A stretch of DNA of 62,426 nucleotides, the filler included. It is 22 parts of 22 records of this genome, joined end to end, with 100 filler letters (N's around TTAATTAATTAA, not from the genome) between each part and the next. Parts side by side here need not be neighbours in the genome. Positions count along the whole stretch, not along the records: positions 24,991 to 29,762 come from SRR16133337_69695; positions 29,863 to 31,906 come from SRR16133337_69980; positions 32,007 to 34,646 come from SRR16133337_70050; positions 34,747 to 37,840 come from SRR16133337_70084; positions 37,941 to 40,753 come from SRR16133337_70127; positions 40,854 to 43,020 come from SRR16133337_70424; positions 43,121 to 46,985 come from SRR16133337_70428; positions 47,086 to 49,252 come from SRR16133337_70509; 14 more parts are not named here. One strand, written 5' to 3'. Below, piece by piece: positions 24,991 to 62,426 of this stretch. The notes beneath the pieces are model-generated. The model ran no database searches and was not told where the DNA came from. It saw only the letters and a list, made by a program, of their open reading frames with translations. The stretch's first letter is position 1. Each line of letters opens with the position of its first letter. The translations under genes and the position numbers were made by a program.

Positions 24991-25044
24991 TTAGAAACAA
25001 AAAGAGGGTTCTAAAAATTCGGGTTTTTAACTGGGTGGAGTATA
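24991..25044. repeat. TATA-ended palindromic element, right arm (copy A)
   Basis: AAAAATTCGGGTTTTTAACTGGGTGGAGTATA at 25013-25044, preceded by a TTAGAAAC...GGTTCTAA hairpin. At the contig start. Confidence 0.85.
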
Positions 25045-25167
25045 ACCCAAATATCCCAATGGGTTTCTTGGGTTAAATATTTACTTGGAAATATTCCTAA
25101 TTACCACAAAAAAGATTTATACTTTTATAGATTCAAAGTAATAGGATATAAAATAGCAACATATAGA

Positions 25168-27102
25168 ATGCAAAATTTACAAACCGACCTTATAGAACTA
25201 CTTAAAAACGAAGATAATTTAGTAGTAGAGAATCAATTGAATAAAAACAAAATAATAGAAGCGGCTTTAAAGGTAGCCCCTTTTTTAATTAATCTTTTAA
25301 TTAAGAATAAAACCTTTAAAAAACACTTCTTTCAAGAAGTAGAAAATGTCTTAGTGTTCGATAAAATTAAGTTTCAACGGTTTGTCAATAACAAGTCTTT
25401 TTTACCCGATAGCTATACAGCCTTTAAAAACAAGATAGGTTTAGCCATTAATGATGATACAACAGATAGCTTTATAAAAACTAAAAACGATGTGGTATTG
25501 GTGTGGCCTCATAAAGATTGTGTATTAGAAGGTGGGCAGACTAAAGAAAACCAAAAACGAAACGAAATATTTTGGAATGAAACCCTTGCACCAGATAATG
25601 TAGATCGGTTATTAGATGCTAAGGCTTTTACCAACTTTAAAAAGTACGATAAAGAAGGAGAGCATAAAGTAACCGACCTAAAAGGCGATGAAAACCTTAT
25701 CTTAAAAGGTAATAACTTATTGGTATTATCTTCTTTGCTAAAAACACATAGAGGTAAAATAAAGCTTATTTATATAGACCCTCCATATAATACAGGTAAT
25801 GATAGTTTTCAATATAATGACAGTTTTAACCATTCTACGTGGTTAACGTTTATGAAAAATCGTTTAGAGATTGCAAAACAACTTTTAAAAGAGGATGGTT
25901 TAATATTTGTACAATGTGATGATAATGAGCAAGGCTATTTAAAGGTTTTAATGGATGAAGTATTTAATCCTTTAAATTTTATTAGCACCATTGTTTCAAA
26001 AGCAGCACCAAATGCAAGAGATTATGGTCATATTGGAAAAATGCATGAGTATATTCAAATGTATGCTAAAAATTATGAAAATACAGTATCTTATCATCTA
26101 GAGGATAAATCAAAAAAGTTTACATATAAAGATGCTAAAAGTCCTTTTAATATTCATCCACTTTATAATAGTAATGTTAATTTTCATAAGGGAAATAGAC
26201 CAAACTTATACTATCCATTTTATTTAAACCCAAATAATAAAATTGAAGGTAATTTTTTAGAAATTTCTTTAATAAAACAAGATGGTTTTATTGAAGTCTT
26301 TCCGCCTACTTCAGTTAAAGATAATGTCCAATTTGTTTGGAGATGGGGTAAAGAGAAAAGTAAAACTAATTTAAAGATTGAAATTGTTGGTTATCAAACT
26401 AATACAGGGGAGTATAGAATAATTCAAAAAATGCGTACAACAGCAAAAGTTGCACGTTCAATTTGGGATGAAACAGAAATGTCAAACAGAAGGGCAACTG
26501 AAGATTTGCAAAAGTTATTTAATAAAAAAATCTTTGCTTATCCAAAAAGTGAATATTTATTAAAACGTATAATTCAAATAGCTACAAAAGAAAATGATAT
26601 AATATTAGATTATCATATTGGTAGCGGTACAACAGCAGCAGTAGCTCACAAAATGAATAGAAAATACATTGGCATTGAGCAAATGGATTATATCCAAAAT
26701 GTTACAGTGGAAAGATTAAAGAAAGTAATTGATGGCGAACAAGGAGGTATAAGTAAAGACGTCAATTGGCAAGGTGGTGGTTCTTTTATATACGCAGAAT
26801 TAATGGAGTATAACCAATACTTTATCAATAAAATACAAAAAGCTAAAACAAAAGAGGCAATAATTGCTATTTGGCAAGAAATGCAAGACAAAGCATTTAT
26901 ATCCTATCAATTTGATAAAGACATCTTTAACGAGCGTTTAGAAGCCTTTAAAACAACTTCTCTAGAAACCATGCAACACTATTTAATTGAGGTGTTGGAT
27001 AAAAACCAACTCTATGTAAACTTTAGTGAAATAGAAGACACCGCATTTACTATAAGTGAAGAAGACAAAGCCTTAAACTATTCATTTTATAATAAAAAAT
27101 AA
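25168..27102 (+). CDS. mod: Type III restriction-modification methyltransferase (Mod)
   Basis: 644 aa. IYIDPPYNTG catalytic motif precedes the LDYHIGSGTT SAM-binding motif (beta class). Directly upstream of res. Confidence 0.95.
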   Translation: MQNLQTDLIELLKNEDNLVVENQLNKNKIIEAALKVAPFLINLLIKNKTFKKHFFQEVENVLVFDKIKFQRFVNNKSFLPDSYTAFKNKIGLAINDDTTDSFIKTKNDVVLVWPHKDCVLEGGQTKENQKRNEIFWNETLAPDNVDRLLDAKAFTNFKKYDKEGEHKVTDLKGDENLILKGNNLLVLSSLLKTHRGKIKLIYIDPPYNTGNDSFQYNDSFNHSTWLTFMKNRLEIAKQLLKEDGLIFVQCDDNEQGYLKVLMDEVFNPLNFISTIVSKAAPNARDYGHIGKMHEYIQMYAKNYENTVSYHLEDKSKKFTYKDAKSPFNIHPLYNSNVNFHKGNRPNLYYPFYLNPNNKIEGNFLEISLIKQDGFIEVFPPTSVKDNVQFVWRWGKEKSKTNLKIEIVGYQTNTGEYRIIQKMRTTAKVARSIWDETEMSNRRATEDLQKLFNKKIFAYPKSEYLLKRIIQIATKENDIILDYHIGSGTTAAVAHKMNRKYIGIEQMDYIQNVTVERLKKVIDGEQGGISKDVNWQGGGSFIYAELMEYNQYFINKIQKAKTKEAIIAIWQEMQDKAFISYQFDKDIFNERLEAFKTTSLETMQHYLIEVLDKNQLYVNFSEIEDTAFTISEEDKALNYSFYNKK

Positions 27103-27110
27103 TAGTTGCT

Positions 27111-29732
27111 ATGAGTTTATTCAATCAAGATCCCATACAACGTTTAGACAAACGTATTGCCTCAAAAATAGAGGATGGCGATATTATTGTAGAGTTATCA
27201 CCAATCATTAAAAATAATTTAAAATTTACCCCCAGACCTTACCAAGAAGAAGCCTTTACAGCACTTAACTATTATCTAAACAATCCCCGTTTATTAAGAG
27301 CCAACCAACCAACACAAGTATTGTTTCATATGGCAACAGGTAGTGGTAAAACGTTGGTAATGGCAGGTGCTATGTTAGAGTTGTATAAAATGGGCTACCG
27401 CAATTTTATATTCTTTGTAAATACAGATACCATTATTCGTAAAACCAAAGAAAACTTCTTAAATCCTAATAGCTCTAAATATTTGTTTAAAGAACAAATC
27501 AATATAGACGGTGTAAACGTAAACATTACAGAAGTAGAAAGTTTTGAAAGCACCCATCCAGACGATATAAGCATTCTCTTTTCCACCATACAAGGCTTAC
27601 ATACAAAGTTAAATGCACCAAGAGAAAACAGCATCACTTTTGATGATTTTTTAGATAAAGAAATAGTATTGATTAGTGATGAAGCCCATCATATTAATAC
27701 CTTGACAAAAAAGAAATTAAGCAAAGGAGAAAAAGAAAATTCTACAAGTTGGGAACATACGGTTAAACGTATTTTAGAAAGTAACCCTGATAATAATATA
27801 ATGTTAGAGTTTACGGCTACGTTAGAACTCCATCATCCTAATATTGCTTCAAAATATGCCAATAAATTATTATACGATTATTCATTAGCTAAATTTAGAG
27901 AAGATGGCTATTCTAAAGAATTACAAACCAATCAAGTAGATTATCAACCTATACAAAGAGCGGTTGTTGCAGTACTTATAAGTCAGTTTAAAAAGAAGAT
28001 TTTTGCCTCTAAAGGAATTTTAGCAAAACCAGTAGTGATGTTTAAATCCAAAACAACTGCTGAAAGTGCTGAAATGGAAAAAGCATTTATTGATGAAATA
28101 CGAAATCTAAATGTTCAAAAATTAGAATTGCTGATCCAATTAGATAATGCCATTTTAGATAAAGCAGTAGACTATTTTAAAACCTTAAATATTTCTCCAC
28201 AAGGTTTAATTGATGAGATCAAAGAAGATTTTTCAGAAGATAAAATCATATCGGTTAATTCTAAAAACGATAGTGACGATAAACAAATAGTTATTAATAG
28301 TTTAGAAGACCATAACAACGAATACAGAGCCGTTTTTGCTGTAGATAAACTCAATGAAGGTTGGGATGTTTTAAACCTATATGATATCGTTAGATTATAT
28401 GATACGCGTGATGCAACAGGAAATAAACCCGGAAAAACAACCGTAGCAGAAGCACAATTAATAGGTAGAGGTGCAAGATATTATCCTTTTCAGTTAGAAG
28501 AATCACAAGAATTAGACAAACGTAAATACGATAATGATTTAGATAACATTATACGTCATTGCGAAACGTTACATTATCATTGCTCACACAATCCAAGATA
28601 TATTACAGAATTAAATAATGCCTTACGTCAAATAGGAATGTTTCCTGAAGAAAAGGTAGAAGTAGATTTAATTCTAAAAAAGGAATTTAAAGAAACATCA
28701 CTCTATAAAAACGGTTTTATATTCTTAAATAAAAAGGTAAAGAACAATCCTAAAACCTTATTAGAATATCAAGAACCTAAGATTATAAAAAAACATACCT
28801 ATACATTAAGAACAAATCGTTCTGCTTCTACAACTATTTTAGATAGCGCTTCAGTTAAGCAAAATAAAGTTCAAGCAAATTATACAAATAAGCACCTTTT
28901 TTCAGTTTGGGATAAAACCCTTATTCAAAAGGGATTAAATAAAATACCTTTTTATCATTTTAGTAATATTAGACGTTATTTCCCAAGTGTGAAGTCAATG
29001 GATGATTTTATTACAGAGGCTAAATATTTTGGAGGGATAATCGTTGAAGTAACAGGTTTACAAAAAGATACTAATAATTTATCGCCTCAACAGAAGTTAG
29101 AAATAGTTATGAATGTTGCGACTAAGGTGGCTGATGAAATAGCCACCAAGTTTGGCGATTATAGAGGTACAAAATCATTTTATCGTGAGCCTTTAAGAGC
29201 GTATTTCAAAAACAAAAAACTATCCTTTTCCGTGAACACAAATACAACAGCAGAAACAGGAAGACCAACAATGCGTAATGATATAGACCCAAAATATTTT
29301 GTGGATTTAGATAAAGCAGATTGGTATGCATATAATGAGAATTATGGTTCTTCAGAAGAAAAGTTTTTAGTGAAATATTTCCACGATAACATTGCTAATT
29401 TAAAAGAGAAATTTAAAAACATCTATCTGTTAAGAAATGAACGTTTCTTTAAACTATACAGGTTTAGTGATGCAAAAGCAATAGAACCAGACTTTGTGTT
29501 ATTTATGACAGATAAAAATTCTGATGAAGAAGTAATTTATCAATTATTTATAGAGCCAAAAGGAAACCATTTATTGGATAACGATAAATGGAAAGAACAA
29601 TTCCTTTCAGAAATTGAAAAAGAAGCTTTCATTGAATTATATCAAAACCAACAATACAAATTGATTGGGATGCCTTTCTATAACAAGGAAAATAGAGAAG
29701 ATGTCTTTACAGAAAAATTAAACGTTCTGTAA
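27111..29732 (+). CDS. res: Type III restriction endonuclease/helicase (Res)
   Basis: 873 aa. MATGSGKT, SDEAHH, NEGWDV, QLIGRGAR, and a C-terminal EPDF...IEPKG nuclease motif. Confidence 0.95.
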   Translation: MSLFNQDPIQRLDKRIASKIEDGDIIVELSPIIKNNLKFTPRPYQEEAFTALNYYLNNPRLLRANQPTQVLFHMATGSGKTLVMAGAMLELYKMGYRNFIFFVNTDTIIRKTKENFLNPNSSKYLFKEQINIDGVNVNITEVESFESTHPDDISILFSTIQGLHTKLNAPRENSITFDDFLDKEIVLISDEAHHINTLTKKKLSKGEKENSTSWEHTVKRILESNPDNNIMLEFTATLELHHPNIASKYANKLLYDYSLAKFREDGYSKELQTNQVDYQPIQRAVVAVLISQFKKKIFASKGILAKPVVMFKSKTTAESAEMEKAFIDEIRNLNVQKLELLIQLDNAILDKAVDYFKTLNISPQGLIDEIKEDFSEDKIISVNSKNDSDDKQIVINSLEDHNNEYRAVFAVDKLNEGWDVLNLYDIVRLYDTRDATGNKPGKTTVAEAQLIGRGARYYPFQLEESQELDKRKYDNDLDNIIRHCETLHYHCSHNPRYITELNNALRQIGMFPEEKVEVDLILKKEFKETSLYKNGFIFLNKKVKNNPKTLLEYQEPKIIKKHTYTLRTNRSASTTILDSASVKQNKVQANYTNKHLFSVWDKTLIQKGLNKIPFYHFSNIRRYFPSVKSMDDFITEAKYFGGIIVEVTGLQKDTNNLSPQQKLEIVMNVATKVADEIATKFGDYRGTKSFYREPLRAYFKNKKLSFSVNTNTTAETGRPTMRNDIDPKYFVDLDKADWYAYNENYGSSEEKFLVKYFHDNIANLKEKFKNIYLLRNERFFKLYRFSDAKAIEPDFVLFMTDKNSDEEVIYQLFIEPKGNHLLDNDKWKEQFLSEIEKEAFIELYQNQQYKLIGMPFYNKENREDVFTEKLNVL

Positions 29733-29762
29733 TATACTCCGTCCCCTTAGAAACCCGAAAAT
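29733..29762. repeat. TATA-ended palindromic element, left arm (copy B)
   Basis: TATACTCCGTCCCCTTAGAAACCCGAAAAT starts on the base after the res TAA and runs to the contig end. Confidence 0.88.
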
Positions 29763-29865
29763 NNNNNNNNNNNNNNNNNNNNNNNNNNNNNNNNNNNNNN
29801 NNNNNNTTAATTAATTAANNNNNNNNNNNNNNNNNNNNNNNNNNNNNNNNNNNNNNNNNNNNATA

Positions 29866-30520
29866 TTATTGACATACAATTTTCAATTTAAACATTCGAT
29901 TATATTTTTGTCTTATGAGTGCCAACGGAATCCTCGTCAATGGAAAAAACGTTCCGTATAGTACATAACGCGGTGCCCTCGAAATGTCCAAAAGTGCCTC
30001 ATCATCTATCGAAGAAATACTATACATGTACAAACACGCTGCTAGCACACCACCAACACAACAATCGAACAATATTGGCCAGGAAATTATATGAAATGTG
30101 AAATTTGTGCTGGCGAGCAGTAAAAAAATGGTTACAGGCAATATTGCCCCAAAATATATGCACACGTGGCACAAAAGTCTGCGGTACAAGTTGAATCCAG
30201 TATACAAAACATAGCAGTCTGTTGCGAATGTGCCCAGAGCGAATATAATAAAAAGTATAAATAGTGCTGATGTTTTTGGTTGTAGTTCCCAAGTTTGAAT
30301 AATTTTGAGTTTGTATTTTTGATTGCAGGTTGAACAAGTTGAATGATTTTCGTTGATGCGAGTTTGTAGCCAGTGTTCTAAGCAGCCGCGATGTACTAGC
30401 CCTAAAGATTTATAAAAAAACGAAACAATCAATTAAATTTCGCAATATGCGCGGTGCTTTTTACAATTCCATTTAAAAAAATCTTTATCGGGTTGGTGAA
30501 AACAAATTAGGCAATATCTT
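29866..30520 (-). CDS. RINGv (RING-CH)/MARCH-like membrane E3 ligase, eukaryotic, 5' structure uncertain
   Basis: VHRGCLEHWL...TCSTCNQKY is followed by several TM segments. A RYCLICF segment lies upstream near 30500 in a separate ORF. Confidence 0.65.
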
Positions 30521-32724: not shown

Positions 32725-33073
32725 TTGTTTTTAGGCTGCTGGTTTTATCTGATTCATATAGATGGTGTTGGTAAATCTTATTTAATGTGGCCGATATTTA
32801 TTTTTTCGACGATTTATTCGTGTATATATGTCATAGTTATGCTCGGACATGCTGTTCGGAACAAAATGTATCTATTTGGAAACCATATTGCACACACGAT
32901 TTGTTTTTGCACTGCACTTGTGTTCGGAATCGTATTTGTAGTTCTATTCACACAAGTTTTGAGCTATTGTGATTGTCCAACTGAGAACGGGGCTAGCCAA
33001 ATCACAGACGTGTTCATAGCGATGTTTATATTAACAGTTTTGAATTGGATTTTGTATTTGGTTTCTGTTTTTG
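32725..33073 (+). CDS. Exon of a eukaryotic multi-pass membrane protein
   Basis: Three hydrophobic segments. The frame ends at a G|GTAAGT donor. No family recognised. Confidence 0.5.
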
Positions 33074-37562: not shown

Positions 37563-37940
37563 CTACAAAATACATAAAGTTGTAAAATAATCAAAAACAC
37601 ACTCATTTGGAAACGAGAAAAAAGAAAAAGCAATGCATTAAAATACCAATTCCGTCATCGCCAAATTTTGAAAATAGAAACGCAACAACACTAAACTTCG
37701 CAAAGTTCGACTGAGCACAAACAAAACAAGTGTTGATTGTTTTGCCAAAAATTTTGGGTCTGAATGTTTTGTCAATATCACACTTATGGTGTTGAAAGTT
37801 GTAATAAGTATTTTTGGGGTATTACGTAGTCTTTGTGAAANNNNNNNNNNNNNNNNNNNNNNNNNNNNNNNNNNNNNNNNNNNNTTAATTAATTAANNNN
37901 NNNNNNNNNNNNNNNNNNNNNNNNNNNNNNNNNNNNNNNN

Positions 37941-40853: not shown

Positions 40854-40877
40854 TTCAGACGTGTGCTCTTCCGATCT
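40854..40877 (+). other. Illumina TruSeq adapter remnant (artefact)
   Basis: TTCAGACGTGTGCTCTTCCGATCT is the 3' part of the read-2 adapter, at a contig start. Confidence 0.97.
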
Positions 40878-42939: not shown

Positions 42940-43126
42940 CTATGTAAACACAAAAAACTTATTTTTTTCCGATTCAAAATGAAAATTGTGTTTTGGGGTG
43001 TAGGCACGGAAACTACGTTTNNNNNNNNNNNNNNNNNNNNNNNNNNNNNNNNNNNNNNNNNNNNTTAATTAATTAANNNNNNNNNNNNNNNNNNNNNNNN
43101 NNNNNNNNNNNNNNNNNNNNGCAAGC

Positions 43127-43741
43127 CTAAAATTTTCGGGTTTCTAACTGAGCGGAGTATCGATTCATCAACCTAGAAACATATTTTCCAATGACATCAA
43201 ATTCCAAATTTACTTCAGTTCCTTTCTTAAAAGAAGGAAAGTTTGTATGCTCGTAAGTAAAAGGTATTATTGCAACGCTAAATTTATTTTTCATAGAGTT
43301 AACAACCGTTAAACTAGTCCCATTGATTGTAATAGCACCCTTTTCTATGGTGATATTATTTTTTGAAGGGTCATATTCAAAGGTAAAAATCCAACTACCC
43401 TTTACATTTTTTATAAGAGTACAAGTAGCTGTTTGATCTACATGTCCCTGTACAAGATGTCCATCCAATCTATCACCAAGTTTCATAGCTCGTTCTAAAT
43501 TGACAAAATCGCCTATTTGTAAAGTTCTTAAATTGGTTTTATCAAGTGTTTCTTTGATAGCAGTTACTGTATAGGTGTTGTTTTCTATTTTTATGACCGT
43601 AAGGCATACTCCGTTATGAGCAATACTTTGATCTATTTTTAGTTCCGTGACAAAATCACAAGTAACAACAATATGCAAATTGTCATTTTCTTTTACAATA
43701 TTTTTTATCAAACCTAGTTTTTCTATGATACCCGTGAACAT
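43127..43741 (-). CDS. ribE: Riboflavin synthase (alpha chain)
   Basis: MFTGIIE N-terminus, SIAHNGVCLTV, VNLERAM, GHLVQGHVD, VNLEFD. Confidence 0.97.
   Translation of the reverse strand: MFTGIIEKLGLIKNIVKENDNLHIVVTCDFVTELKIDQSIAHNGVCLTVIKIENNTYTVTAIKETLDKTNLRTLQIGDFVNLERAMKLGDRLDGHLVQGHVDQTATCTLIKNVKGSWIFTFEYDPSKNNITIEKGAITINGTSLTVVNSMKNKFSVAIIPFTYEHTNFPSFKKGTEVNLEFDVIGKYVSRLMNRYSAQLETRKF
43129..43160. repeat. TATA-ended palindromic element arm (copy C) inside the ribE 3' end
   Basis: AAAATTTTCGGGTTTCTAACTGAGCGGAGTAT. Confidence 0.88.
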
Positions 43742-43803
43742 AAAATTGTCAATTTAATTGATTACTTTTGAACCCTCAAAAATAAGGATAATAAAGTACT
43801 TGA

Positions 43804-44853
43804 ATGGATAAAGAAGAAAAAATTAAAGTCGGAATTTCTATAGGAGATTTAAATGGCGTTGGGTTAGAAGTGGTTTTAAAAACCTTTTCTGATAAACGAA
43901 TTTTAGATTTTTGTACCCCCATTGTTTTTGGATCTACAAAAGTGTTTTCTTATCATAAAAAAGCGATCAATTCTGAAGTGCAAGCACAAGGTATTTCCTC
44001 TTTAGATAGAATTGTGGATGAAAAGATTAATGTGATGAATGTATGGAAAGAAGAGCTGAATATAAATCTTGGAAATCCAACTAAAGATTCAGGTTCTTAT
44101 GCTTTAAAGTCTTTAGTGGCTGCCACCAATGCTTTGAAAACAAAAAAAGTGGATGTTTTGTTAACCGCCCCCATTAGCAAAGGTAATATTCAATCAGATG
44201 AATTTAGATTTGCAGGTCACACAGAATATTTAGAATCTCAATTAGAAGGAGATAGTTTAATGATATTAATAACAGAAGGTTTACGGTTAGGTTTGATCAC
44301 AGGTCATATTCCTATTTCAAAAGTAGCACAAACCATTACCAAAGAATTGATTCAAAAGAAAGTTGATATTATGTATAATACACTGGTGCAGGATTTTGGA
44401 ATTACCAAACCAAAAATCGCGGTTCTAGGTTTGAATCCACATGGTGGAGATCATGGAGTTATTGGTAATGAAGAGGACGAGTTGATACGTCCAACCCTAT
44501 TAGAAATACAACAAAAAGGAAAATTAGTCTATGGTCCCTATGCCGCAGATGGTTTTTTTGGCTCTGAAAACTATCAAAAATTTGATGGTGTATTGGCAAT
44601 GTATCACGATCAAGGCTTGGTTGCCTTTAAAACAATCGCCTTTGGAAATGGAGTTAATTTTACTGCAGGATTATCTGAAATACGAACTTCTCCAGATCAT
44701 GGAACCGCTTTTGAAATTGCAGGAAAAAACAAAGCGGATGCCTCTTCTTTTAGAGAAGCACTATATACAAGTTTAAAAATATATAAAACAAGAGCAAATT
44801 ATATTTCATTGGTAAAAAATAGCTTAAAAAAGAAAAAAGATAGTAACGTGTAA
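43804..44853 (+). CDS. pdxA: 4-hydroxythreonine-4-phosphate dehydrogenase
   Basis: Motifs GDLNGVG, TAPISK, GHTEYL, GLNPH, AMYHDQG, RTSPDHGTAF. A TACTTTTG -7 element lies at 43763. Confidence 0.96.
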   Translation: MDKEEKIKVGISIGDLNGVGLEVVLKTFSDKRILDFCTPIVFGSTKVFSYHKKAINSEVQAQGISSLDRIVDEKINVMNVWKEELNINLGNPTKDSGSYALKSLVAATNALKTKKVDVLLTAPISKGNIQSDEFRFAGHTEYLESQLEGDSLMILITEGLRLGLITGHIPISKVAQTITKELIQKKVDIMYNTLVQDFGITKPKIAVLGLNPHGGDHGVIGNEEDELIRPTLLEIQQKGKLVYGPYAADGFFGSENYQKFDGVLAMYHDQGLVAFKTIAFGNGVNFTAGLSEIRTSPDHGTAFEIAGKNKADASSFREALYTSLKIYKTRANYISLVKNSLKKKKDSNV

Positions 44854-44885
44854 ATTTTAGTTTTTTTCTGTAAAATAAAATTTTA

Positions 44886-44893
44886 TACCTTTG
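44886..44893 (+). promoter_or_regulatory. Bacteroidota -7 promoter element for the (yceD)-rpmF unit
   Basis: TACCTTTG matches TAnnTTTG. Confidence 0.65.
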
Positions 44894-44914
44894 CATGCCT
44901 CAATAACGTTCTAA

Positions 44915-44936
44915 TATACTCCGCCTGATTAGAAAC
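44915..44936. repeat. TATA-ended palindromic element, truncated left arm (copy D)
   Basis: TATACTCCGCCTGATTAGAAAC. Confidence 0.85.
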
Positions 44937-44943
44937 GAAAGCA

Positions 44944-45013
44944 TTAGAGGAGTTAAAAATAAAAAGCACCCTATATAACAAATCCAAGATGGGATTAGTT
45001 AAAAGATTTATGA
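44944..45013 (+). pseudogene. yceD: 3' remnant of yceD/DUF177
   Basis: LEELKIK, then after a +1 shift NPRWD*LKDL. This matches the DUF177 C-terminal DPRWxxLKxL motif, at the expected position just upstream of rpmF. Confidence 0.75.
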
Positions 45014-45032
45014 ATCCATAAAAATCACTACA

Positions 45033-45227
45033 ATGGCACATCCAAAAAGAAAAATCTCCAAACAAAGAAGAGATAAAAGAAGAACTCATTACAAAGCAAC
45101 TACTCCGCAGATAGCTGTAGACCCAACAACAGGTGAAGCACACCTATATCATAGAGCTCATTGGCATGAAGGAAAATTGTATTACAAAGGACAAATTGTC
45201 ATAGATTCTATAGAAGCGGAAGCATAG
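45033..45227 (+). CDS. rpmF: 50S ribosomal protein L32
   Basis: [22 protein letters not shown]...[18 protein letters not shown], the flavobacterial Cys-free type. Confidence 0.97.
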
Positions 45228-45248
45228 TTCTTTAAAAGGAATTTAGAT

Positions 45249-45278
45249 AAAAACCCTCTAAATTATGAGGGGTTTTTT
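45249..45278 (+). terminator. Intrinsic terminator after rpmF
   Basis: AAAACCCTC-loop-GAGGGGTTTTTT. Confidence 0.7.
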
Positions 45279-45397
45279 AGTTTTTTGTAGCCAAAATAAG
45301 TAATTATCGCTTCTTTTTTAACTCCATATGAAATAAATTCCATTACTTTGAATATCGATTTTTTAAGGAAAATTTTTCAAAGAAGCCTCTAAATTTT

Positions 45398-46399
45398 ATG
45401 ATTATGATTAAGAAAACTGCAGTAATTACAGCAGTAGGAAAATATGTTCCTGACTATGTTCTGACAAATAAAGAGCTAGAAACTTTAGTAGAAACCAACG
45501 ATGAATGGATTTATACCAGAACAGGAATCAGAGAAAGAAGAATTTTAAAAGATCCCAATAAAGCCACCTCTTATTTAGCCATCAAAGCCGCTCAAAATTT
45601 GATGGCTAAAAAAGGATTAGATTCTATAGAAATTGACATGGTAATTGTAGGTACTACAACTCCAGATATGAATGTTGCATCTACAGCAATTTATGTTGCT
45701 ACTCAAATAGGAGCCGTAAATGCATTTGGTTATGACTTACAAGCAGCTTGCTCTAGTTTTTTGTACGCAATGTCAGTGGCTGCCAGTTATATAGAGTCTG
45801 GAAAATATAAAAAAGTACTGGTCATTGGTGCAGATAAAATGTCATCTATTGTAGACTATACAGATAGAGCCACGTGTATTATTTTTGGAGATGGGGCAGG
45901 TGCTACACTCTTTGAAGCCAATGAAGAGGGATTGGGTTTGCAAGACGAATACCTAAGAAGTGACGGTATTGGTAGAGATTTTCTAAAAATAGAAGCAGGA
46001 GGTTCTTTGTTACCAACTTCGCAGGATACTTTAGATAAAAGACAACATTATCTTCAGCAAGAAGGGAAAACAGTATTTAAATATGCGGTTTCTAAAATGG
46101 CGGAAGCTAGTGAAAAAATATTACAACGTAATCATCTTACGAACAAAGATATTGATTGGTTGGTACCACATCAAGCAAATAAACGTATTATAGAAGCAAC
46201 CGCAAAAAGGATTCATTTAGAGATGGATAAAGTAATGATCAATATTCAAAATTATGGAAATACGACTTCTGCAACATTGCCATTGCTTTTAGCAGATTAT
46301 GAAGAAAAACTAAAAAAAGGAGATACCATTGTATTTGTTGCTTTTGGAGGTGGGTTTGCATGGGGTGCTATTTATTTGAAATGGGCATACAATTCTTAA
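45398..46399 (+). CDS. fabH: 3-oxoacyl-ACP synthase III
   Basis: AACSSF, HQAN and YGNT catalytic triad; FGDGAGA. Confidence 0.97.
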   Translation: MIMIKKTAVITAVGKYVPDYVLTNKELETLVETNDEWIYTRTGIRERRILKDPNKATSYLAIKAAQNLMAKKGLDSIEIDMVIVGTTTPDMNVASTAIYVATQIGAVNAFGYDLQAACSSFLYAMSVAASYIESGKYKKVLVIGADKMSSIVDYTDRATCIIFGDGAGATLFEANEEGLGLQDEYLRSDGIGRDFLKIEAGGSLLPTSQDTLDKRQHYLQQEGKTVFKYAVSKMAEASEKILQRNHLTNKDIDWLVPHQANKRIIEATAKRIHLEMDKVMINIQNYGNTTSATLPLLLADYEEKLKKGDTIVFVAFGGGFAWGAIYLKWAYNS

Positions 46400-46436
46400 A
46401 AAAGGGAACTTAATAACATTTATATTTAACTTACTT

Positions 46437-46922
46437 ATGGATTTAAAGGACATTCAAAATTTGATAAAGTTTATAGCCAAATCTGGTGCAAGTGAGGTGA
46501 AATTAGAAACAGAAGACATTAAAATCACTGTAAAAACAGATTCTGGTAAAACAGGGACAACTATTTTACAACAAGCTCCAATTTCTCCATCTCAGCTACC
46601 TGTAGTATCTCAAGAGATTTCTCATGGAGATCCTGTACCACAAAAAAAGAAAAGCAATTTGGCTAGTGATGACGACTCTAAGTATTTGACAATTAAATCT
46701 CCAATTATTGGGACATTTTATAGAAGGTCCTCTCCAGACAAAGCGATGTTTGTGGAAGTAGGCGATATCGTTCATGAAGATTCTATTGTTTGTGTTATTG
46801 AAGCAATGAAATTGTTTAATGAAATTGAAGCAGAGGTTTCAGGAAAAATTATAAAAATATTGGTGGAAGATTCCTCTCCAGTAGAGTTTGGACAACCCCT
46901 ATTTTTAGTAGACCCTTCCTAA
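46437..46922 (+). CDS. accB: Acetyl-CoA carboxylase biotin carboxyl carrier protein
   Basis: IEAMKLFNEI biotinylation motif; SPIIGTFY. Confidence 0.97.
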   Translation: MDLKDIQNLIKFIAKSGASEVKLETEDIKITVKTDSGKTGTTILQQAPISPSQLPVVSQEISHGDPVPQKKKSNLASDDDSKYLTIKSPIIGTFYRRSSPDKAMFVEVGDIVHEDSIVCVIEAMKLFNEIEAEVSGKIIKILVEDSSPVEFGQPLFLVDPS

Positions 46923-46975
46923 GTGAGCGGAGTATACTCCGCCCGGTTAGAAACTCCAAAATTTTGGGGTTTCTA
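46917..46975. repeat. Back-to-back arms of the palindromic element sharing one TATA (copy E)
   Basis: TCCTAAGTGAGCGGAG-TATA-CTCCGCCCGGTTAGAAACTCCAAAATTTTGGGGTTTCTA, near the contig end. Confidence 0.88.
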
Positions 46976-49900
46976 TTTTTGTTTGNNNNNNNNNNNNNNN
47001 NNNNNNNNNNNNNNNNNNNNNNNNNNNNNTTAATTAATTAANNNNNNNNNNNNNNNNNNNNNNNNNNNNNNNNNNNNNNNNNNNNTAATTTTTGTGAGCA
47101 TAACTCATTTTTTAATATTGAAATTTCATATATTTGCTCTAAGTCAGCAAAAAGTCAAAGTTTTTTACTGAAAATTTCAGTGTATGCACTCTGAAATACT
47201 GCGGATCTCGTGGAAATATTGCTTGCCTTTCAAACCCTCTAAAACATTAAATATATTAATTTTGTGAGCATAACTCATTTTTTTAATATTAAAATTTAAT
47301 ATCCTGAACGTGTGGCTGGTAGCTGCTTCGGAGTTCCTTGAAATTATTCTATGAAACATAACAAACAATGTTTAAAACCAAAAGGTTGATTTTACAATGT
47401 ACACATTATGATTTATTGAGATTTAATACAAATAAATTCACAGTTGCATAACCCACATTGTTACACCTAAAGCATCACACAAATGATCAACTTTTCTTGC
47501 AACCACGTTTTCTGTGTTTTTTTATTGTGTTTGGGGTAACTTTAATGCTTTTCGGTGAGCTTTTTAACATTCTCACATACAAATTTTCTTCTGAATGCTG
47601 TTGTTTTTGTTGTTTTGTATGTGTTGTTCCGTAGCTCGAAGTTTTGCAGAAGCTTTGAAAACGTGTGGGGAAGCGAAATGCGAAGCAAACAATGCGGATA
47701 GCGCTCTGTCGTTGGTGGTGTACATAGCGTAGTGTTTGAATACTGTTGGTGGCACTTACGAGCAAAACCAAAACAACTCTCTATCACAATGCATTGGCCG
47801 CAATCGAACATTTATCAACTGTATTACGCGCACGTTGTTTCCAGGCATCTTTTTCATTTTTCGAACGCGCAGAAAACCGTGTTACAATTTGTTTTTCTTG
47901 AATAAAAAATCAAGTTTCGAAAAGTAAGGTACCGCCATCATTCTGTTAACTATCAACTCTCAAATTTGTTTTGGTAGACTTTTTGTTTGATTTCCCAAGT
48001 TTGACACCATCAAATCCTGATTCAAATGCAATGATGTCAATTTCGGTGCGAAATCGATCGGGATCACACATGGCCAGAGCTCAACCTGCTTGCAAACAAA
48101 GAACGGTTTCACACCCAACACACTCGGCGAAAAACCTCAATTATTGAAGAAAATACTGATATTGCTGCAGCCAACGATCTAAGTCTAGCACTTGTGATGC
48201 TCAACTAATAATTAAATTTGAAATCTTTTTTAATTTGCCTTTACTTTGATTTTTCTCTCGTTTTATCATAACTCTTAGGTAGGCCGTGAACAAACTTTAT
48301 TTTTTTTGAACATTCCTGTGTCATTCCCTGCTTCGAGTTACGGTTGGGGTTGCGGGAGGAGTTTCCCACTGGCAACAGCGCGCTGCATTCGCCCAGTGTG
48401 AGAAAAAGTGACGTCAATAGCGGCTAGTTCTTGACTGGTGGATGTTCGTGTAGCGCTCAGCACAACTGGAACAAATTTAATTAATTTGGCAATTTCTTTC
48501 GTTTTCTCTTGCACGTTCAAGGTACTGGAAGGGCTGGATGTTGGAGGCATTTGGGGGGGGGGTGGAGAGTGGAAGTGCGGAGAGTGTGGGGAGATGTGTT
48601 TTGGAGGTTTTGAACTTTTTAACCGGTGGGACATTTTCATCAAGCCGGAGGCGCAGAAGCAAGCTGATAATTTTAAATCTAGTGAAACCTGTGTGCGGGG
48701 TGACTTTTTCATAGTGGTGGGGTTGAAATACTTTGGATCGTAAATTAAAAAACCAAATCACAAATTCATCGAAAAACACAAGAAACCCCGATAATTACGT
48801 TTTGAACAACAAAATTATTTTTTGGATACTCATCTACAAAGATATAAACGTCATGAGAATTAATTTATTGATTGCCTGTGTACCATGAATAAAACAAAAC
48901 AAACAAAAATCAAATTAATTGTTCAAGATATCTTTGTATGTTTTCGATTTTTGTCTGGTCGTCGTATGGTTGGTGTGTGGCGTAGACCAACTTTCAAAAG
49001 CCAGTTTCGCCCGTTTCGCCCGTTTGCCCCGAAAAACACACTTTTGTTCATTTCCACATGGATTGCTTTGTTGGGAGAGGTTGGATTTTTTTTCGAACTT
49101 GACCAAAATGAACAATGCCATCATGGTAATTAACTGTGCACTTGCCGGTGTGGAATTCTTTGTTGCTCAGCTTGTAGAATAACTTTTGTTGGACCAAGTG
49201 CTCATTTTAATGAAAAAAAAAGTTATTTCAACTGAAATTAAGGAGCCCTAACNNNNNNNNNNNNNNNNNNNNNNNNNNNNNNNNNNNNNNNNNNNNTTAA
49301 TTAATTAANNNNNNNNNNNNNNNNNNNNNNNNNNNNNNNNNNNNNNNNNNNNGGGAAATATGAGCGCTGTACGAAAGCAAACAAAAGTTATTGCTCGAAA
49401 ACGATGTCATTTCTTTTCAGATTTCAAGACAACGAACTACTGCGAAATTTGTCAACACATTCAGAAAGTGAAATTTTTCTTTTGTGAGGTAGGGCAACTA
49501 CGTTTTACAATTAAATCACGGTTTGAAATATGTGTTGTTTTTCATTAAAATGCTGAATTTCCACGTGTCACATGTCGTAAGTTTTTCACAACTATTTTTT
49601 TCACTAAAATCGCTAAAAAAATTTAGCCCGTGAATAATCTGAAACCCACGTAAAGTCTCCAAATATGAGGAAATGTGCACATCACGTTGCCCAAAAACGC
49701 ACCGTTCAATCATTTTTCGGGATAAAATTTTTTATTGCATGTGTCGGGCAAGAAATGAAAATTGTGAATTTCAATTTTGGTTTGAAATCGTTCTGTGCCC
49801 AAGTATTTTGAGAATTCATAATTTTTCTGCCAGGACCTTTTCAATAGTTGCATAAGCTGTTTTGGGGCATCTTCCCTACTATTCCAAAAGCAGCTTGGTT

Positions 49901-53833: not shown

Positions 53834-53845
53834 TTTTTACGCGTT

Positions 53846-55902: not shown

Positions 55903-56002
55903 NNNNNNNNNNNNNNNNNNNNNNNNNNNNNNNNNNNNNNNNNNNNTTAATTAATTAANNNNNNNNNNNNNNNNNNNNNNNNNNNNNNNNNNNNNNNNNN
56001 NN

Positions 56003-58073
56003 AATCAGCCAAGTGCTGTTCCTACTCCACAAGTCACTGCCCCTCCTGGAGAACCTTTGGTCACTGCAGGTATTGTTTTCAAATTAGTTCTGGTTTATGT
56101 TGTTTGTCAAAAAACACATTCACTAGACTGTTTGAAAACAAAAGAAAAAAATGCTCACTTGAAACAAATGCTCACAGAAGGGAAATACTATGCAACGACT
56201 CTGTTGTGGCAAAGAAAATATATATTGCGTTTTTCAAGTGTGTGCAGTGAATAATGAAATGAATTTTGCGAAATAGATTTTATCTATTGCAAATTGTGAT
56301 GGGCTTTATTATGTTATTAATACTGCATTGAGACAAGTTTTCAAAAATTAGAGTTTCTTGAATATCGTTAAAAATAATGAAATGGATATTATTTTCTAAT
56401 AAGCAAGCATCTTCAAATACATGTAACTTTGCTTGTAATGACAGTTGCTAACTCGAAATACATTGTTGTAAGATAGAGCTTGTCATGAAAGCAAGTTTGT
56501 GCAATTGATTTCTTTGCCACGATAGAGTTTTGTTTTCGCATTTGTGTTTCTTGTTTGAACCGAATAGAATCAATTCTAAACTGTTTACCGTTGTTCGATC
56601 GCTTTGTTATTTTAAATTTATTTGTAATTTTTCATTTGTAGAACATTTCAAACCCTATGTACGACTAAGTTGCCAACACACCCCAGCCAAATGTAGACAC
56701 AACCAAGGGTGTACTTATTTCGTGCGTTTTACTTAACCTCTTCTCATATTTCATTTATGTCATTTCTTTTCCAATCATTTGAATCGAATTTTTGAATTTT
56801 CATTACAAATTCCAATTTCGCAAAGAAATAAAATATGTATAATATGTTTTGCAGTCCCACGTTCGATTAAATATATGTACATTGTATCAAAGTGCTTTTG
56901 TGAGCGATGTGGCACTCCCTCCGTTTTATTTATGTGTCTACTTAAAATCGGGAAAAGATCAGAATACGACAAACAGTTTAAATTCCTTTTTATTTTGCAT
57001 GTTTCAATTCGAACAATAATTTATGTACAATCCGTAGAATTATACACGCGATTTGTTTCGTTAAATAGCTCCTACTCCTATTCCAACTCAACTCCCGACT
57101 CCACTCATTACCCAACTACCGTCTGCTCAACCAACACCTGAGGGAACATCACTCCCCAGTCTTCTTCCTGCACGTAAGTCCTCCTGTGATGATAGTTCAA
57201 AAAGATTTAATATTTTATGTTGAACATTCGTCATGGAGAGGAAATTAATAATGCGATATTTGAATTGTTATATTTATATATTTGTTGGTGATTCTATGAG
57301 AAAAAGAATTGAGTTTTTCGATGTTATATGAATTTGAAACTTGTTGTTCTTCTTTAAAATATTTGCTCAATGTCATCGATCAGGCAAAAAAATTAAAATT
57401 TTATTTCGTCGTGTGGTGGATGCTTACACACGAAATATTTTACATGTGTGATTAGTATTTACATTCTCGATTGCTTGGTATATGCCATTCAAACTATAGA
57501 AAATAAATGGCTTTTTCAACAAAGTTCCACTAACTAAGAAACAAAAAACGAATGTAAACATACTTTCTGAATTATCAGTGGGCGTCACAAATACAAAGAT
57601 CTCAGAAAAGACTCTCATTTCGTTTGTTAACGTTTGCGTAGCAAGGAAACATATTGGTGCTTTTGTAGATACAGTGCATGTGGTATTCAAACGCGCTGAA
57701 AATCCGTTTGTGTTTTAGTATGTGTTGTTTTTTGTTACTGACAAAAGGCATTCATTTATACGAAAAGTGCACATACATTCTTGTGATGTCTTCGCTCTAT
57801 TTTTGTGTCGGTTTGGGACTTAACTGGGACTTAGTTCGATTGTTTGTTTAAAACCAGAATCCCACTAGTTATCGTAATATTTATGCTTGTTCACGACACA
57901 AATTGTTAATTTTTTGTGGTAAGAAATATAATCCAAATTCAATTTATGTGGTGGTATTGTATTAGCAATTGGAACTCCGATAGCAACGAATGCTCCTTCT
58001 CCTTCCACAACTCAGTTGCCAACGCCACTGTCTACTCCAATGGTTACGAACATACCGACGGGCGATCCAGCAA
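56003..58073 (+). CDS. Partial spliced mucin-like Pro/Thr/Ser-rich protein
   Basis: Phase-1 exons <56003-56069, 57069-57173 and 57966-58073 with GT-AG boundaries. They encode PT/PS-rich units. Confidence 0.7.
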
Positions 58074-58307
58074 GTAAGTTGTTTTTGTGGTGAATCCGAT
58101 TCAGCGGATCAATGTGTTTCCAATATTTTCCTCGTGAAAATAGTTTTTGAAATTTTGGCCCCTTCACCAAGATTTTCTTGTCAGACGAACTTGACTTTCA
58201 AAAGCATNNNNNNNNNNNNNNNNNNNNNNNNNNNNNNNNNNNNNNNNNNNNTTAATTAATTAANNNNNNNNNNNNNNNNNNNNNNNNNNNNNNNNNNNNN
58301 NNNNNNN

Positions 58308-58337
58308 AAATTCGGGTTTCTAAGGGGGTGGAGTATA
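58308..58337. repeat. TATA-ended palindromic element, right arm (copy F)
   Basis: AAATTCGGGTTTCTAAGGGGGTGGAGTATA at the contig start. Confidence 0.88.
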
Positions 58338-58426
58338 GACATTTAAAATTTAGAATGCTGATGCAAGCCCTAAAAATAACAGTAACCCAAAAAATTTAAC
58401 ACGAAATACTTAAAAAACAAATAATT

Positions 58427-60220
58427 ATGCAAACTATAAAAGGAGGAGAATTCTTACTAAAAGAAACAAAACCTATAGATGTTTTTAGCACAGAAGATTT
58501 TACAGAAGAACAACAAATGATGAAAGCCTCTATTCAAGAATTTATAGATCGAGAAGTTTGGCCACACAAAAATCGTTTTGAAAAAGAAGATTATAGCTTT
58601 GCTGAAGAACTTATGAACAAAGCTGCAGAAATGGGACTTTTAGGCATCTCTGTTCCTGAAGCCTATGGCGGTATGGGAATGGACTTTGTTTCTACAATGC
58701 TTGTTTGCGATTATATTTCTGGAGCTAGCGGTTCTTTAGCAACTGCCTATGGAGCACATACAGGAATTGGAACCATGCCCATTGTATTGTATGGGTCAGA
58801 AGCTCAAAAACAACAATACGTTCCTAAACTAGTGTCTGGAGAATGGTTTGGTTCTTATTGTTTGACGGAACCAGATGCAGGAAGTGATGCCAATTCAGGA
58901 AAAACAAAAGCCACCCTTTCTAAAGATGGAAAACATTATAGAATCAACGGTCAAAAAATGTGGATTTCAAATGCTGGATTTTGTCGTTTGATGATTGTTT
59001 TTGCACGTATTGAAGAGGATAAAAATATATCTGCATTTATCGTAGAATACGATGCTGAAAATCCAAATGGAATTACTCTAGGCGAAGAAGAACGCAAACT
59101 TGGTATCAAAGGCTCTTCTACACGTCAAGTTTTTTACAACAATACCTTGGTACCCGTAGAAAATATGCTTTCTGAAAGAGGAAAAGGTTTTAAAATAGCC
59201 TTAAACTCTTTAAATATAGGACGTATAAAATTAGCGGCTGCCTGTTTGGATCAATCTAGAAGAACAATTACAGAAGCCCTTAAATATGCCAATAAAAGAA
59301 AACAATTCAACAAAACGATTGCCTCTTTTGGTGCCATCCAATATAAATTAGCAGAAATGACAACAGGAACCTATGTTTCTGAATCTGGAAGTTATAGAGC
59401 GGCAAAAGACATCCAAAATAAAATTGATGAGCTCTTAGCTTCTGGAAAATCACATCAAGAAGCAGAATTGAAAGGAGTTGAAGAATACGCTATTGAATGT
59501 GCTATTTTAAAAGTATATGCTTCCGAAAAATCGCAATATGTTGTTAATGAAGGCATTCAAATTTTTGGAGGAATGGGGTTTTCTAAAGACACTCCTATGG
59601 AAGCAGCTTGGCGCGATGCTAGAGTTAGCAGTATTTACGAAGGAACAAATGAAATTAATAGATTACTTAGTATAGGAATATTGCTAAAAAAAGCCTTTAA
59701 AGGTGAATTAGATTTGATGACTCCAGCAATGACAATTGCCAATGATTTGATGAGTACACCTTCTTTTGATACTCCAGACTATTCAGCGTTGTTTTCTGAA
59801 GAAAAAGAAATGCTTTTAAAATTAAAAAAGACTTTTTTAATGATTCTTGGGAAAGCCGTTGAAACTTATGGAATGGAGTTGGAAAATCAACAACAAATAA
59901 TCATGGCTATTGCAGAAATTATGATTGAAATTTACATGGCTGAATCTACCCTCCTAAAAACTGAAAAACGTATCCATAAAACCACAGAAAAGGAGTGCCT
60001 GGAACAGATTGCAATGGCTAGATTAAACTTATTTAATGCCGTAGAAATCATCAATCGCAAAGGAAAAGAAGCTATTATTTCCTTTGCCGAAGGTGATGAA
60101 CAACGTATGCTGCTCACGGGCTTAAAACGTTTTACAAAATACACAAACTATCCAAATGTAATAGGATTGCGAAAAATAATTGCGGCAAAATTAATTGCAG
60201 AAAACAATTATTGTTATTAA
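58427..60220 (+). CDS. Acyl-CoA dehydrogenase (long, VLCAD-like)
   Basis: 597 aa. CLTEPDAGSDA, INGQKMWISN, QIFGGMGF, IYEGTNEI. Confidence 0.96.
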   Translation: MQTIKGGEFLLKETKPIDVFSTEDFTEEQQMMKASIQEFIDREVWPHKNRFEKEDYSFAEELMNKAAEMGLLGISVPEAYGGMGMDFVSTMLVCDYISGASGSLATAYGAHTGIGTMPIVLYGSEAQKQQYVPKLVSGEWFGSYCLTEPDAGSDANSGKTKATLSKDGKHYRINGQKMWISNAGFCRLMIVFARIEEDKNISAFIVEYDAENPNGITLGEEERKLGIKGSSTRQVFYNNTLVPVENMLSERGKGFKIALNSLNIGRIKLAAACLDQSRRTITEALKYANKRKQFNKTIASFGAIQYKLAEMTTGTYVSESGSYRAAKDIQNKIDELLASGKSHQEAELKGVEEYAIECAILKVYASEKSQYVVNEGIQIFGGMGFSKDTPMEAAWRDARVSSIYEGTNEINRLLSIGILLKKAFKGELDLMTPAMTIANDLMSTPSFDTPDYSALFSEEKEMLLKLKKTFLMILGKAVETYGMELENQQQIIMAIAEIMIEIYMAESTLLKTEKRIHKTTEKECLEQIAMARLNLFNAVEIINRKGKEAIISFAEGDEQRMLLTGLKRFTKYTNYPNVIGLRKIIAAKLIAENNYCY

Positions 60221-60290
60221 AATTTAAGAGACTCTATTAATTTGATTGGACAACGGAGAGGGTGTCATACTTGAAAATTTAACGAAGTTT

Positions 60291-60321
60291 AGAAACCTAG
60301 CAGGTTTTTTAAACCTGCTAG
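60291..60321. repeat. Second REP-like palindrome family (AAACCTxxxAGGTTT type)
   Basis: AAACCTAGCAGGTTTTTTAAACCTGCTAG forms nested inverted repeats at the contig end. Confidence 0.7.
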
Positions 60322-60421
60322 NNNNNNNNNNNNNNNNNNNNNNNNNNNNNNNNNNNNNNNNNNNNTTAATTAATTAANNNNNNNNNNNNNNNNNNNNNNN
60401 NNNNNNNNNNNNNNNNNNNNN

Positions 60422-60953
60422 TCTTGTTTTTTTAAATAATTTAAAAACTCCCCTATCAGAATGGGATCAAATTCAATTATTAGAAATATTAAAGAGATTT
60501 GAAAACCAAGAAATACCAGATATTACACCTTGGTTGAAGTCAGAAAATGAATCCGTAATTATTTTTGCGTTAAAACTAGCAAAAATTTACAATCAGTTTG
60601 AGGTAAAAGACACACTGATTGATTTATTAACCCATAAAAGTAAAAAGGTGAGAGTTTCGTTAATTCCTGTATTAAGCTATTTGCAGGTTTTAGAAGCGAA
60701 AGAAATTTTAAAAAGGAACTTTAAAGAATCCAGCCTAGAAGAACAAATCGCTTTTTTTAAAATGTTAGAAAGCACATTTGATCATAAAGATACCTCCTTT
60801 TTATGGGAACACATCCATCATGAAAATTTTGAAATGAAGTTCTCCGCATTAAAAACATTAAAAGAGCTTGATCCCGATGGGTTTGAAAATTTAGAAACAA
60901 CTCCACCAGAGTCCGAATTCGTAAAAATTGTTAAATTTATAAAAAATAACTGA
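60422..60953 (+). CDS. HEAT-repeat protein (5'-truncated)
   Basis: Helical repeats (WLKSENESVIIFALKL, LLTHKSKKVR, HIHHENFEMKFSALKTL). The frame is open from the contig start. Confidence 0.8.
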
Positions 60954-60967
60954 TTGGAGATCTAAGC

Positions 60968-62392
60968 ATGGTACTTATAATAATACTCACATTTGTTTAC
61001 TTATTCATTGCTTATACGATTACAGTAATCGTGTCTTATATCCTATTATCCCTACTTTCTTCATTTGAAACGATTGAATATTTTAAAAAAAACAGTTTTG
61101 TCAACTATAAAGAAATTGTAGCTTCAACGATTTCTCCATCTATTTCCATTATAGCACCCGCCTATAATGAAAGCCTAAATATTGTTGAAAACGTAAGATC
61201 TTTATTGTCAAATCATTACGTAAATTACGATGTCATTATTATAAACGATGGAAGTAACGATGATAGTTTAGAAAAATTGAAGAAAGCCTATGACTTGGTT
61301 CGTGTAGATTATCTTATAAATGAACAGATAAAAACAAAACCATTAAGAGAAGGTGTTTTTAAATCCACCAATCCAGCATTTGAAAAATTGATCGTTGTTG
61401 ATAAAGAAAATGGAGGAAAATCAGATGCGTTAAATTTAGGATTAAATATAAGTAATAGTGACTATGTTGCCTGTATAGATGTTGACTGTTTGTTGTTGGA
61501 AGATGCACTTCAAAAAATGATAAAACCCTTTTTAGAAATAACGGATTTTACGGTAATCGCCACAGGAGGGGTCATAAGAATTGCCAATTCCTGTGTCATA
61601 AAAAACGGAAAATTATTGGAGATTAATTTTCCTAAAAAAATGATAGAAAGAGTGCAAATATTGGAATATTTAAGGTCTTTTTTATTAGGAAGAATGGCTT
61701 GGAGTAGGCTTAATGGACTTTTGGTTATTTCGGGTGCTTTTGGTTTGTTTGACAAAAAAATTGCCATTGAAGTAGGGGGGTATGATACACACACTGTAGG
61801 GGAAGATATGGAAATTATTGTACGAATGAGGAGGCATATGGAAGAGCAGAAAAGAAAATATAAAATTGCCTATATTCCTGATCCGCTTTGTTGGACAGAG
61901 GCTCCAGATAATTATAAGATTCTCATCTCTCAGCGAAACAGATGGACCCGAGGAACTATTGAAACTCTTAAGAAACACCGTAAAATAGCAGGCAACTATA
62001 GATACAGATCTCTTGGGCTTCTGAGTTATCCCTATTGGTTTGTTTATGAAAGAATGGCTCCCATTATTGAAGTTGTAGGAATGCTGTATTTAATAGGATT
62101 AATCGCATCTAAAAGCGTGAGGTGGGACTTTGCTATTGCTTTTTTTATAATCGCCTATTTGTTCTCAGTTCTATTTTCTTTGGTGGCTATCTTTTCGGAA
62201 GAACTCACCTATCATCAATATAAAAAGAGAGGGACAGGTTTTAGTTTGATTCTCACTATTTTATTAGAGCCTTTTACCCTACATCCCTTTATTCTTTATG
62301 CAGCAATAAGGGGTAATTTAGACTATTATTTTAATAAGAAGAAGAAATGGGGGGTAATGAGAAGAAAAGGACTTGCAGAAAGCAAAAGTTAG
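60968..62392 (+). CDS. Processive GT2 glycosyltransferase (PgaC/IcaA-like)
   Basis: APAYNE, NDGSND, NGGKSDALN, DVD, GED, QRNRW; N- and C-terminal TM helices. Confidence 0.93.
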   Translation: MVLIIILTFVYLFIAYTITVIVSYILLSLLSSFETIEYFKKNSFVNYKEIVASTISPSISIIAPAYNESLNIVENVRSLLSNHYVNYDVIIINDGSNDDSLEKLKKAYDLVRVDYLINEQIKTKPLREGVFKSTNPAFEKLIVVDKENGGKSDALNLGLNISNSDYVACIDVDCLLLEDALQKMIKPFLEITDFTVIATGGVIRIANSCVIKNGKLLEINFPKKMIERVQILEYLRSFLLGRMAWSRLNGLLVISGAFGLFDKKIAIEVGGYDTHTVGEDMEIIVRMRRHMEEQKRKYKIAYIPDPLCWTEAPDNYKILISQRNRWTRGTIETLKKHRKIAGNYRYRSLGLLSYPYWFVYERMAPIIEVVGMLYLIGLIASKSVRWDFAIAFFIIAYLFSVLFSLVAIFSEELTYHQYKKRGTGFSLILTILLEPFTLHPFILYAAIRGNLDYYFNKKKKWGVMRRKGLAESKS

Positions 62393-62393
62393 T

Positions 62394-62426
62394 AAAAAAT
62401 TCGGGTTTCTAACTGGGAGGAGTATA
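62394..62426. repeat. TATA-ended palindromic element, right arm (copy G)
   Basis: AAAAAATTCGGGTTTCTAACTGGGAGGAGTATA, 1 bp after the GT2 stop. Confidence 0.88.

Follow-up and report, generated by a model that had tools for sequence, protein, structure and literature searches.

The stretch of DNA analyzed here (hereafter the window; 62,426 nucleotides) is made up of 22 contigs of 2.0–4.8 kb each, joined by linkers of 44 N, a 12-nt TTAA repeat and a further 44 N, which dominated the output of the repeat finder. Judged by gene content, six of the 22 contigs are bacterial (19,832 bp combined) and carry uvrD and a tRNA, type III mod/res genes, ribE, pdxA, rpmF, fabH and accB, susC/susD, an acyl-CoA dehydrogenase gene and a GT2 gene, while the other 16 look eukaryotic, one of them being mitochondrial. 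The subject of this work is a short palindromic element with TATA ends, represented in the window by eight arms, all of them on the bacterial contigs and none on the remaining 16. An Rfam search of the window at the gathering score returned a single tRNA as its sole match.

The top match of fabH was 85% identical (a Flavicella metagenome-assembled genome), with the next two both at 82%, and that of PdxA was 80%, the nearest named organism being Flavicella sediminum at 76%. From these levels of similarity, the bacterium that carries the element, uncultured and of marine type, belongs to an unsampled, Flavicella-related lineage of the Flavobacteriaceae. A host-associated or host-restricted lifestyle of this flavobacterium is plausible.

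A palindromic repeat with two length classes

With a 22-bp arm and up to three mismatches allowed, seven matches were found in the window, whereas 100 shuffled sequences gave a mean of 0.00 and a maximum of 0; an eighth arm, of 18 bp, lies at positions 46919–46936. The arms form seven loci within 19,832 bp and occupy 6 of the 12 bacterial contig ends, the last of which is the end of the window and possibly a cut. None of the copies is complete within the window. A preliminary description had proposed that the arms fit a single TATA-ended consensus palindrome of high copy number, which lacks complete copies here and sits at assembly breaks, and the counts above bear this out.

Over the eight arms, 63 of 64 bases are conserved in an outer 8-bp block (block 1, TATACTCC) and 60 of 64 in an inner one (block 2, TTAGAAAC), compared with 32 of 48 in the 6-bp spacer between them. 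A pair of conserved blocks with an unconstrained spacer in the middle suggests a protein-binding end. The outer end reads TATA in seven arms and GATA in the eighth.

Contigs from one public run that contains this DNA, which is probably the source sample, were aligned to the 3.9-kb contig at 43121–46985. Among the data sets listed as containing the DNA, none was of RNA, which carries no information about expression. A total of 212 run records aligned, and one alone spans the unique part of this contig, at a depth of 68.7. In one run contig, an arm like that at 44915–44936, three letters and the arm starting at 43129 make up a full 58-bp palindrome, which folds at −33.3 kcal/mol. The size of ~58 bp first proposed holds for this class only, as there is a second class of ~68–70 bp. 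The copies at 24991–25044 and 46933–46985 have interiors of 24 and 26 nt, respectively, versus 14 nt in the 58-bp form. Moreover, at least five run records match 46933–46984 with 2–7 differences each, and at least five loose ends behind 46984 start with CTAAC, the start of the right arm, which together indicate a length of ~70 bp. The fold of 46917–46985 has a z score of −4.7.

At least 35 records diverge at 43160/43161 and at least 15 at 46933/46934, with a flank agreement of only 0.45–0.62; since the records run into dissimilar flanks, TATA is the boundary of the element. Depth bins at the two ends of 43121–46985 sum to 8,806 and 5,374, equivalent to 400–510 and 140–180 arms, values that are inflated by contig overlap and do not represent a copy number. 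Dozens of loci are evident, and a number in the low hundreds is likely. The five element-bearing contigs among those listed have depths of 51–65, close enough to 68.7 that they probably come from the same organism. "Skip" joints between run records were rejected as evidence for back-to-back copies, because the intervening letters are not known. At the level of sequence, the repeat family, its palindrome, its sharp TATA boundary and its two length classes are established.

Copies of the element and their neighboring genes

The first copy (24991–25044, minus strand) is of the long form, with an inferred length of ~68 bp, and comprises a full arm (25023–25044), the interior and the last 8 nt of a second arm, and is cut by the contig start; the ATG of the type III methyltransferase gene lies 124 bp downstream. 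The left half of another copy (29733–29762, plus strand), cut by the contig end, begins right behind the TAA of the type III res gene; this gene retains its native end, and its product has the same C-terminus as its homologues. Between these two copies (25044–29733) lies an intact type III mod/res pair that is probably mobile, since identity to Res homologues reaches 89%, above the level of the housekeeping genes, and these homologues are patchy in their occurrence (2 of 301 genomes); the two flanking copies might conceivably have captured it.

The copy at 43121–43161 (minus strand), cut by the contig start, lies in the reading frame of ribE and has GA, not TA, as its outer dinucleotide. ribE reads into this copy, which supplies about 10 additional codons and the stop; counted from the final GKY up to the stop, the RibE tail has 20 residues versus 9–13 in 64 of 64 relatives scored.

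At the yceD locus, a half-element consisting of a single 22-bp arm (44915–44936, plus strand) occupies the start-codon position at the junction of a ~440-bp deletion. The upstream leader is retained, and behind the arm yceD is picked up again near codon 142 as a 3′ remnant (44929–45032, plus strand), which has its first 8 nt in common with the arm's inner block. Alignments of this remnant scored 72–96, compared with shuffle maxima of 55–62, and the gap between pdxA and rpmF is 195 bp here, whereas it measures 595–815 bp in all 69 relatives that could be scored. In relatives, the product is a YceD protein (PF02620), and the gene is full length in 75 of 80 fabH loci; the other five are four short loci and one locus (L035) without yceD. 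Seven of the eight bases of block 2 align with the native yceD of a relative (L003), so that the microhomology at the junction reaches up to 8 bp. A half-copy thus does mark a gene loss, as stated in the preliminary description, but the claim of a reshaped genome was overstated, as it is based on one deleted and one extended gene, while the complete genes look intact.

Behind accB, two copies stand back to back across one TATA. The first is a truncated 18-bp arm (46919–46936, minus strand) whose inner end has CTAA in common with the stop and native end of accB, a gene that precedes accC in relatives. The second is a long-form copy (46933–46985, plus strand; ~70 bp inferred), in which the arm is followed by a 12-bp inner hairpin carrying one two-sided change and by a T run, before the copy is cut by the contig end. 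The right half of a further copy (58308–58337, minus strand), cut by the contig start, lies 90 bp upstream of the ATG of the acyl-CoA dehydrogenase gene. Finally, the half-element at 62393–62426 (minus strand) has its TATA end at the window end and abuts the GT2 stop with its inner side; no GT2 orthologue, and hence none for this junction, was found in five close genomes (best match 31%).

Stop codons are touched or overlapped at four loci, as had been described: res (29730–29732), ribE (43127–43129), accB (46920–46922) and GT2 (62390–62392). The preference for gene 3′ ends derived from them was overstated, since it concerns 4 of 7 loci and similar repeats are known to show it too.

Three of the eight arms are half-elements with an intact outer end and a broken inner side, and the two that could be compared with relatives break at shared motifs of 4–8 bp. 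Palindromes are described as risks for breaks and deletions (PMC7999016), and frequent single-end insertion is reported in vitro (PMC2170065). Hairpin-triggered slippage or repair, or one-ended insertion, would fit the half-elements better than an adjacent deletion by a transposase.

A different palindrome, with an 11-bp stem (−14.8 kcal/mol), lies at the end of the acyl-CoA dehydrogenase contig (60287–60321), directly after TTAGAAACC, which is the arm's inner block. This palindrome may be a terminator or represent another family of repeats; its degenerate motif revealed no family in 5 close genomes. Elsewhere in the window, the region 18418–20200, with a tRNA (19847–19920), two small HTH_3 genes (19122–19382 and 19422–19670) and a 192-aa orphan alongside, has the appearance of an island's edge, with the tRNA as the integration site. 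The mitochondrial contig (37941–40753) carries atp1, open under translation table 4 with 9 TGA codons, and an atp6 fragment. The contig start at 40854–40877 may be an Illumina adapter, which it resembles.

Distribution of the element

Searches for relatives of the element were exact or near-exact scans of sampled collections, and the negative results given here apply to those collections. The exact arm pattern gave no match in GTDB genomes or in JGI metagenomes, and the element was found in none of the five closest genomes. Of 401 family genomes, 10 contained a total of 11 matches, versus 7 control matches, and the 9 of the 11 that were inspected were unpaired. A two-arm pattern occurred in 15 of 61 relatives, with 1–3 sites each, which is roughly the control level. 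At least 121 metagenome and 51 viral stretches matched a two-block pattern, none of the 172 having a paired arm above 16/22. BLAST of 46917–46985 against 401 phylum genomes returned 10 single weak hits, none of which included the terminus, and plasmids and phages gave no match better than E 0.5. In the literature searched, no MITE (miniature inverted-repeat transposable element) with these ends or from Flavicella was found; ISfinder and a catalogue of Flavobacteriales MITEs (bioRxiv 2024.01.18.576219) lay outside this comparison. The earlier statement that the element matches no named family agrees with the searches run. Confinement to a genus is given as usual for MITEs, at 98.2% of clusters (bioRxiv 2024.01.18.576219).

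Nature and probable mobilization of the element

The element is an unusually small, real, lineage-specific MITE family of a familiar type: it is shorter than 200 bp and lacks a transposase, it has terminal inverted repeats that form a hairpin over its whole length, it ends in TA, and it is dispersed in high copy number. We consider it probable that a transposase of the IS630/Tc1-mariner type, which targets TA, acts in trans to mobilize this MITE, as suggested by the TA termini, the ends of 22–29 bp and the sharp boundary. A cut-and-paste DDE transposase of this type, encoded elsewhere in the genome now or formerly, would bind the two conserved arm blocks (TATACTCC and TTAGAAAC), excise the element and insert it at a TA, which would be duplicated. 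Copies would persist between genes and at stop codons, because intragenic insertions would be purged and TAA and TAG begin with TA. Some copies would later lose their inner half together with adjacent DNA at short shared motifs, and the loss of yceD may have been such a deletion.

Comparable repeats are known in other bacteria. Like ERIC/IRU and MITEPlu5 of the Enterobacterales, the element forms a whole-length hairpin, has TA at both termini, probably exists in hundreds of diverged copies and is attributed to an IS630-type transposase (PMC2229807, PMC6267812); for the ERIC-like MITEPlu5, which is tied to IS630, 552 copies are reported, none identical to the consensus (PMC6267812). Compared by description only, those repeats differ in length (123–127 bp versus 58–70 bp here, short of the ~127 bp that characterizes enterobacterial ERIC), in phylum and in that their cognate insertion sequence (IS) is known (PMC2229807, PMC6267812). 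RUP and BOX of Streptococcus pneumoniae are also small TA-flanked repeats (PMC2229807, PMC3049150), and 36 genes owe their stop codon to BOX (PMC3049150), but RUP has 107 bp, BOX is modular, and their ends are matched to IS630-Spn1 or ISSpn2. In its mode of working, the element resembles Correia elements as well as RUP and ERIC/MITEPlu5 (PMC2229807, PMC6267812). MITECca01 of Cardinium cOegib (169 copies) is likewise a lineage-specific MITE burst in the Bacteroidota; unlike the element here, it has ~240 bp, derives from IS982 with its parent identified, and resides in a proven endosymbiont (PMC9769881). ISY100 of the IS630 family shares the TA flanks, duplicates TA and has ends of 24 bp (22–29 bp here); it is autonomous, unlike the element, and the likeness is one of description, not of sequence (PMC2170065). 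Since 30 bp at each end are enough for ISY100 to move (PMC2170065), an element of 58 bp is plausible in mechanistic terms.

Several observations weigh against mobilization by an IS630-type transposase or limit what the data say about it. No transposase gene for the element was found in the window. Among related genomes, 5 of 61 and 10 of 401 contain IS630-type genes (PF13358), and the proposed IS630 link found no backing in these relatives: none of 14 flavobacterial IS630-type elements with defined ends, a small sample, resembles the arm, and the best profile score over their 28 ends was −3.2, versus 32–38 for the arms. Four of the 14 do have TA/TA termini (the slash marks the element boundary), which speaks for an IS630-type mover, and five start with TAC after a 3-bp TWA repeat. 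The mobility and TA duplication that had been proposed gained no support from a comparison of filled and empty sites, since orthologous sites in relatives lack the element but the nearest orthologous DNA is only 72–84% identical, too low to be useful. MITEs are described as A+T-rich (PMC2229807), whereas the consensus arm has ~45% G+C (~55% A+T) in contigs of 30–35% G+C. The run contigs extend the data yet are not independent, as the run is probably the source sample. Locus L035, from a Psychroflexus with full flanks, lacks yceD between pdxA and fabH, so that yceD can be lost or moved without the element. Lastly, a start at TACTCC and one at CTCC are both compatible with the copies: TA/TACTCC would fit ERIC-type elements, the ribE copy fits TA/CTCC with an A/T-rich target preference, because its TA coincides with the place where L001 and L002 have their stop, and the pair at 46919–46954 with its shared TATA fits either. 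An apparently matching end pair in L117/L119 was rejected as due to chance. As a separate observation, PF13358 elements starting with TAC and flanked by an apparent 3-bp TWA direct repeat instead of TA were seen at L328, L333, L336, L338, L124, L340, L116 and L127 (Flavobacteriaceae).

This ambiguity bears on an alternative that we regard as unlikely, namely a MITE moved by another DDE family (for example IS982, IS5 or a TWA-duplicating IS630-like one), or a 4-bp TATA duplication with CTCC ends. The back-to-back pair has exactly one TATA in common, the ribE TA before CTCC is the stop-codon position in two of the three closest relatives, and 8 of the 14 IS end pairs are unlike TA/TA, several of them starting TAC after TWA; in Cardinium, moreover, the MITE derives from IS982 (PMC9769881). 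Yet a shared TATA would equally result if one copy inserted into the TA at the end of an older one, and a TWA duplication does not match the triplets outside TACTCC, which read TTA, ATA, CGA, ATA, CTA and GTA and never TAA.

It is distinctly improbable that the element is a doublet of the REP/REPIN kind that owes its spread to a single-strand HUH transposase (RAYT/TnpA). Its two short inverted arms, variable spacer and position near gene 3′ ends do recall the dimers of GTAG/CGTC REPs (PMC3733652). Each REP, however, is a stem-loop of its own, whereas three single arms of the element fold at 0.0 kcal/mol and a fourth has a z of 1.1, so that no hairpin forms inside a single arm, and the GTAG/CGTC tag occurs in none of three copies tested.

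A domesticated RNA or DNA signal (a terminator, an mRNA stabilizer or a protein-binding site) that recombination has spread and selection has retained would account for the loci at 3′ ends (4 of 7), for the 12-bp hairpin and T run of the long form behind accB and for the two-sided change, which preserves the stem. This is at odds with an element that was not found in the five closest genomes and is at chance level in 401 family genomes, and whose copies lie inside conserved operons and on a destroyed gene, and we hold it to be highly improbable.

Only the slightest chance is given to an attC-like or Xer-type recombination site centered on TATA. attC boxes read RYYYAAC and GTTRRRY and close a cassette. 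The back-to-back form does read TAA, hairpin, GTTAG, its first box containing the accB stop, and truncations cluster at TTAG/CTAA; on the other hand, neither box motif was found in three copies tested, the majority of records stop at TATA and have flanks that are unique, and the neighbors are housekeeping genes in conserved order. An assembly or amplification artefact, as might be suspected from a mixed, concatenated assembly with six of eight arms at contig ends, is practically negligible, because copies differ, two that are internal to a contig are covered by one 3,768-bp record without difference, and many more copies are present in an assembly of the run that was made independently.

Significance for the genome

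Taken alone, the element is a modest addition, as lineage-specific bursts of TA-flanked MITEs are already known. At 58–70 bp it is near the size limit for a working IS630-type transposase and smaller than bacterial MITE families, which are described as having 100–200 bp (PMC2229807). Its presence in many copies accounts for the short contigs of this genome.

The half-copy at the exact junction of the yceD deletion hints at how repeats of this type could give rise to gene loss. We put forward tentatively, as a rather doubtful extension, that an ends-only, near-minimal MITE overran a newly host-restricted marine flavobacterium and became a genome-wide seed of deletions, in which the TTAG/CTAA block of the hairpins, hundreds in number, would be the point of collapse onto similar motifs of neighboring genes. 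If this were true, the element itself would drive gene loss, and MITE-driven genome reduction could be counted junction by junction in a finished genome.

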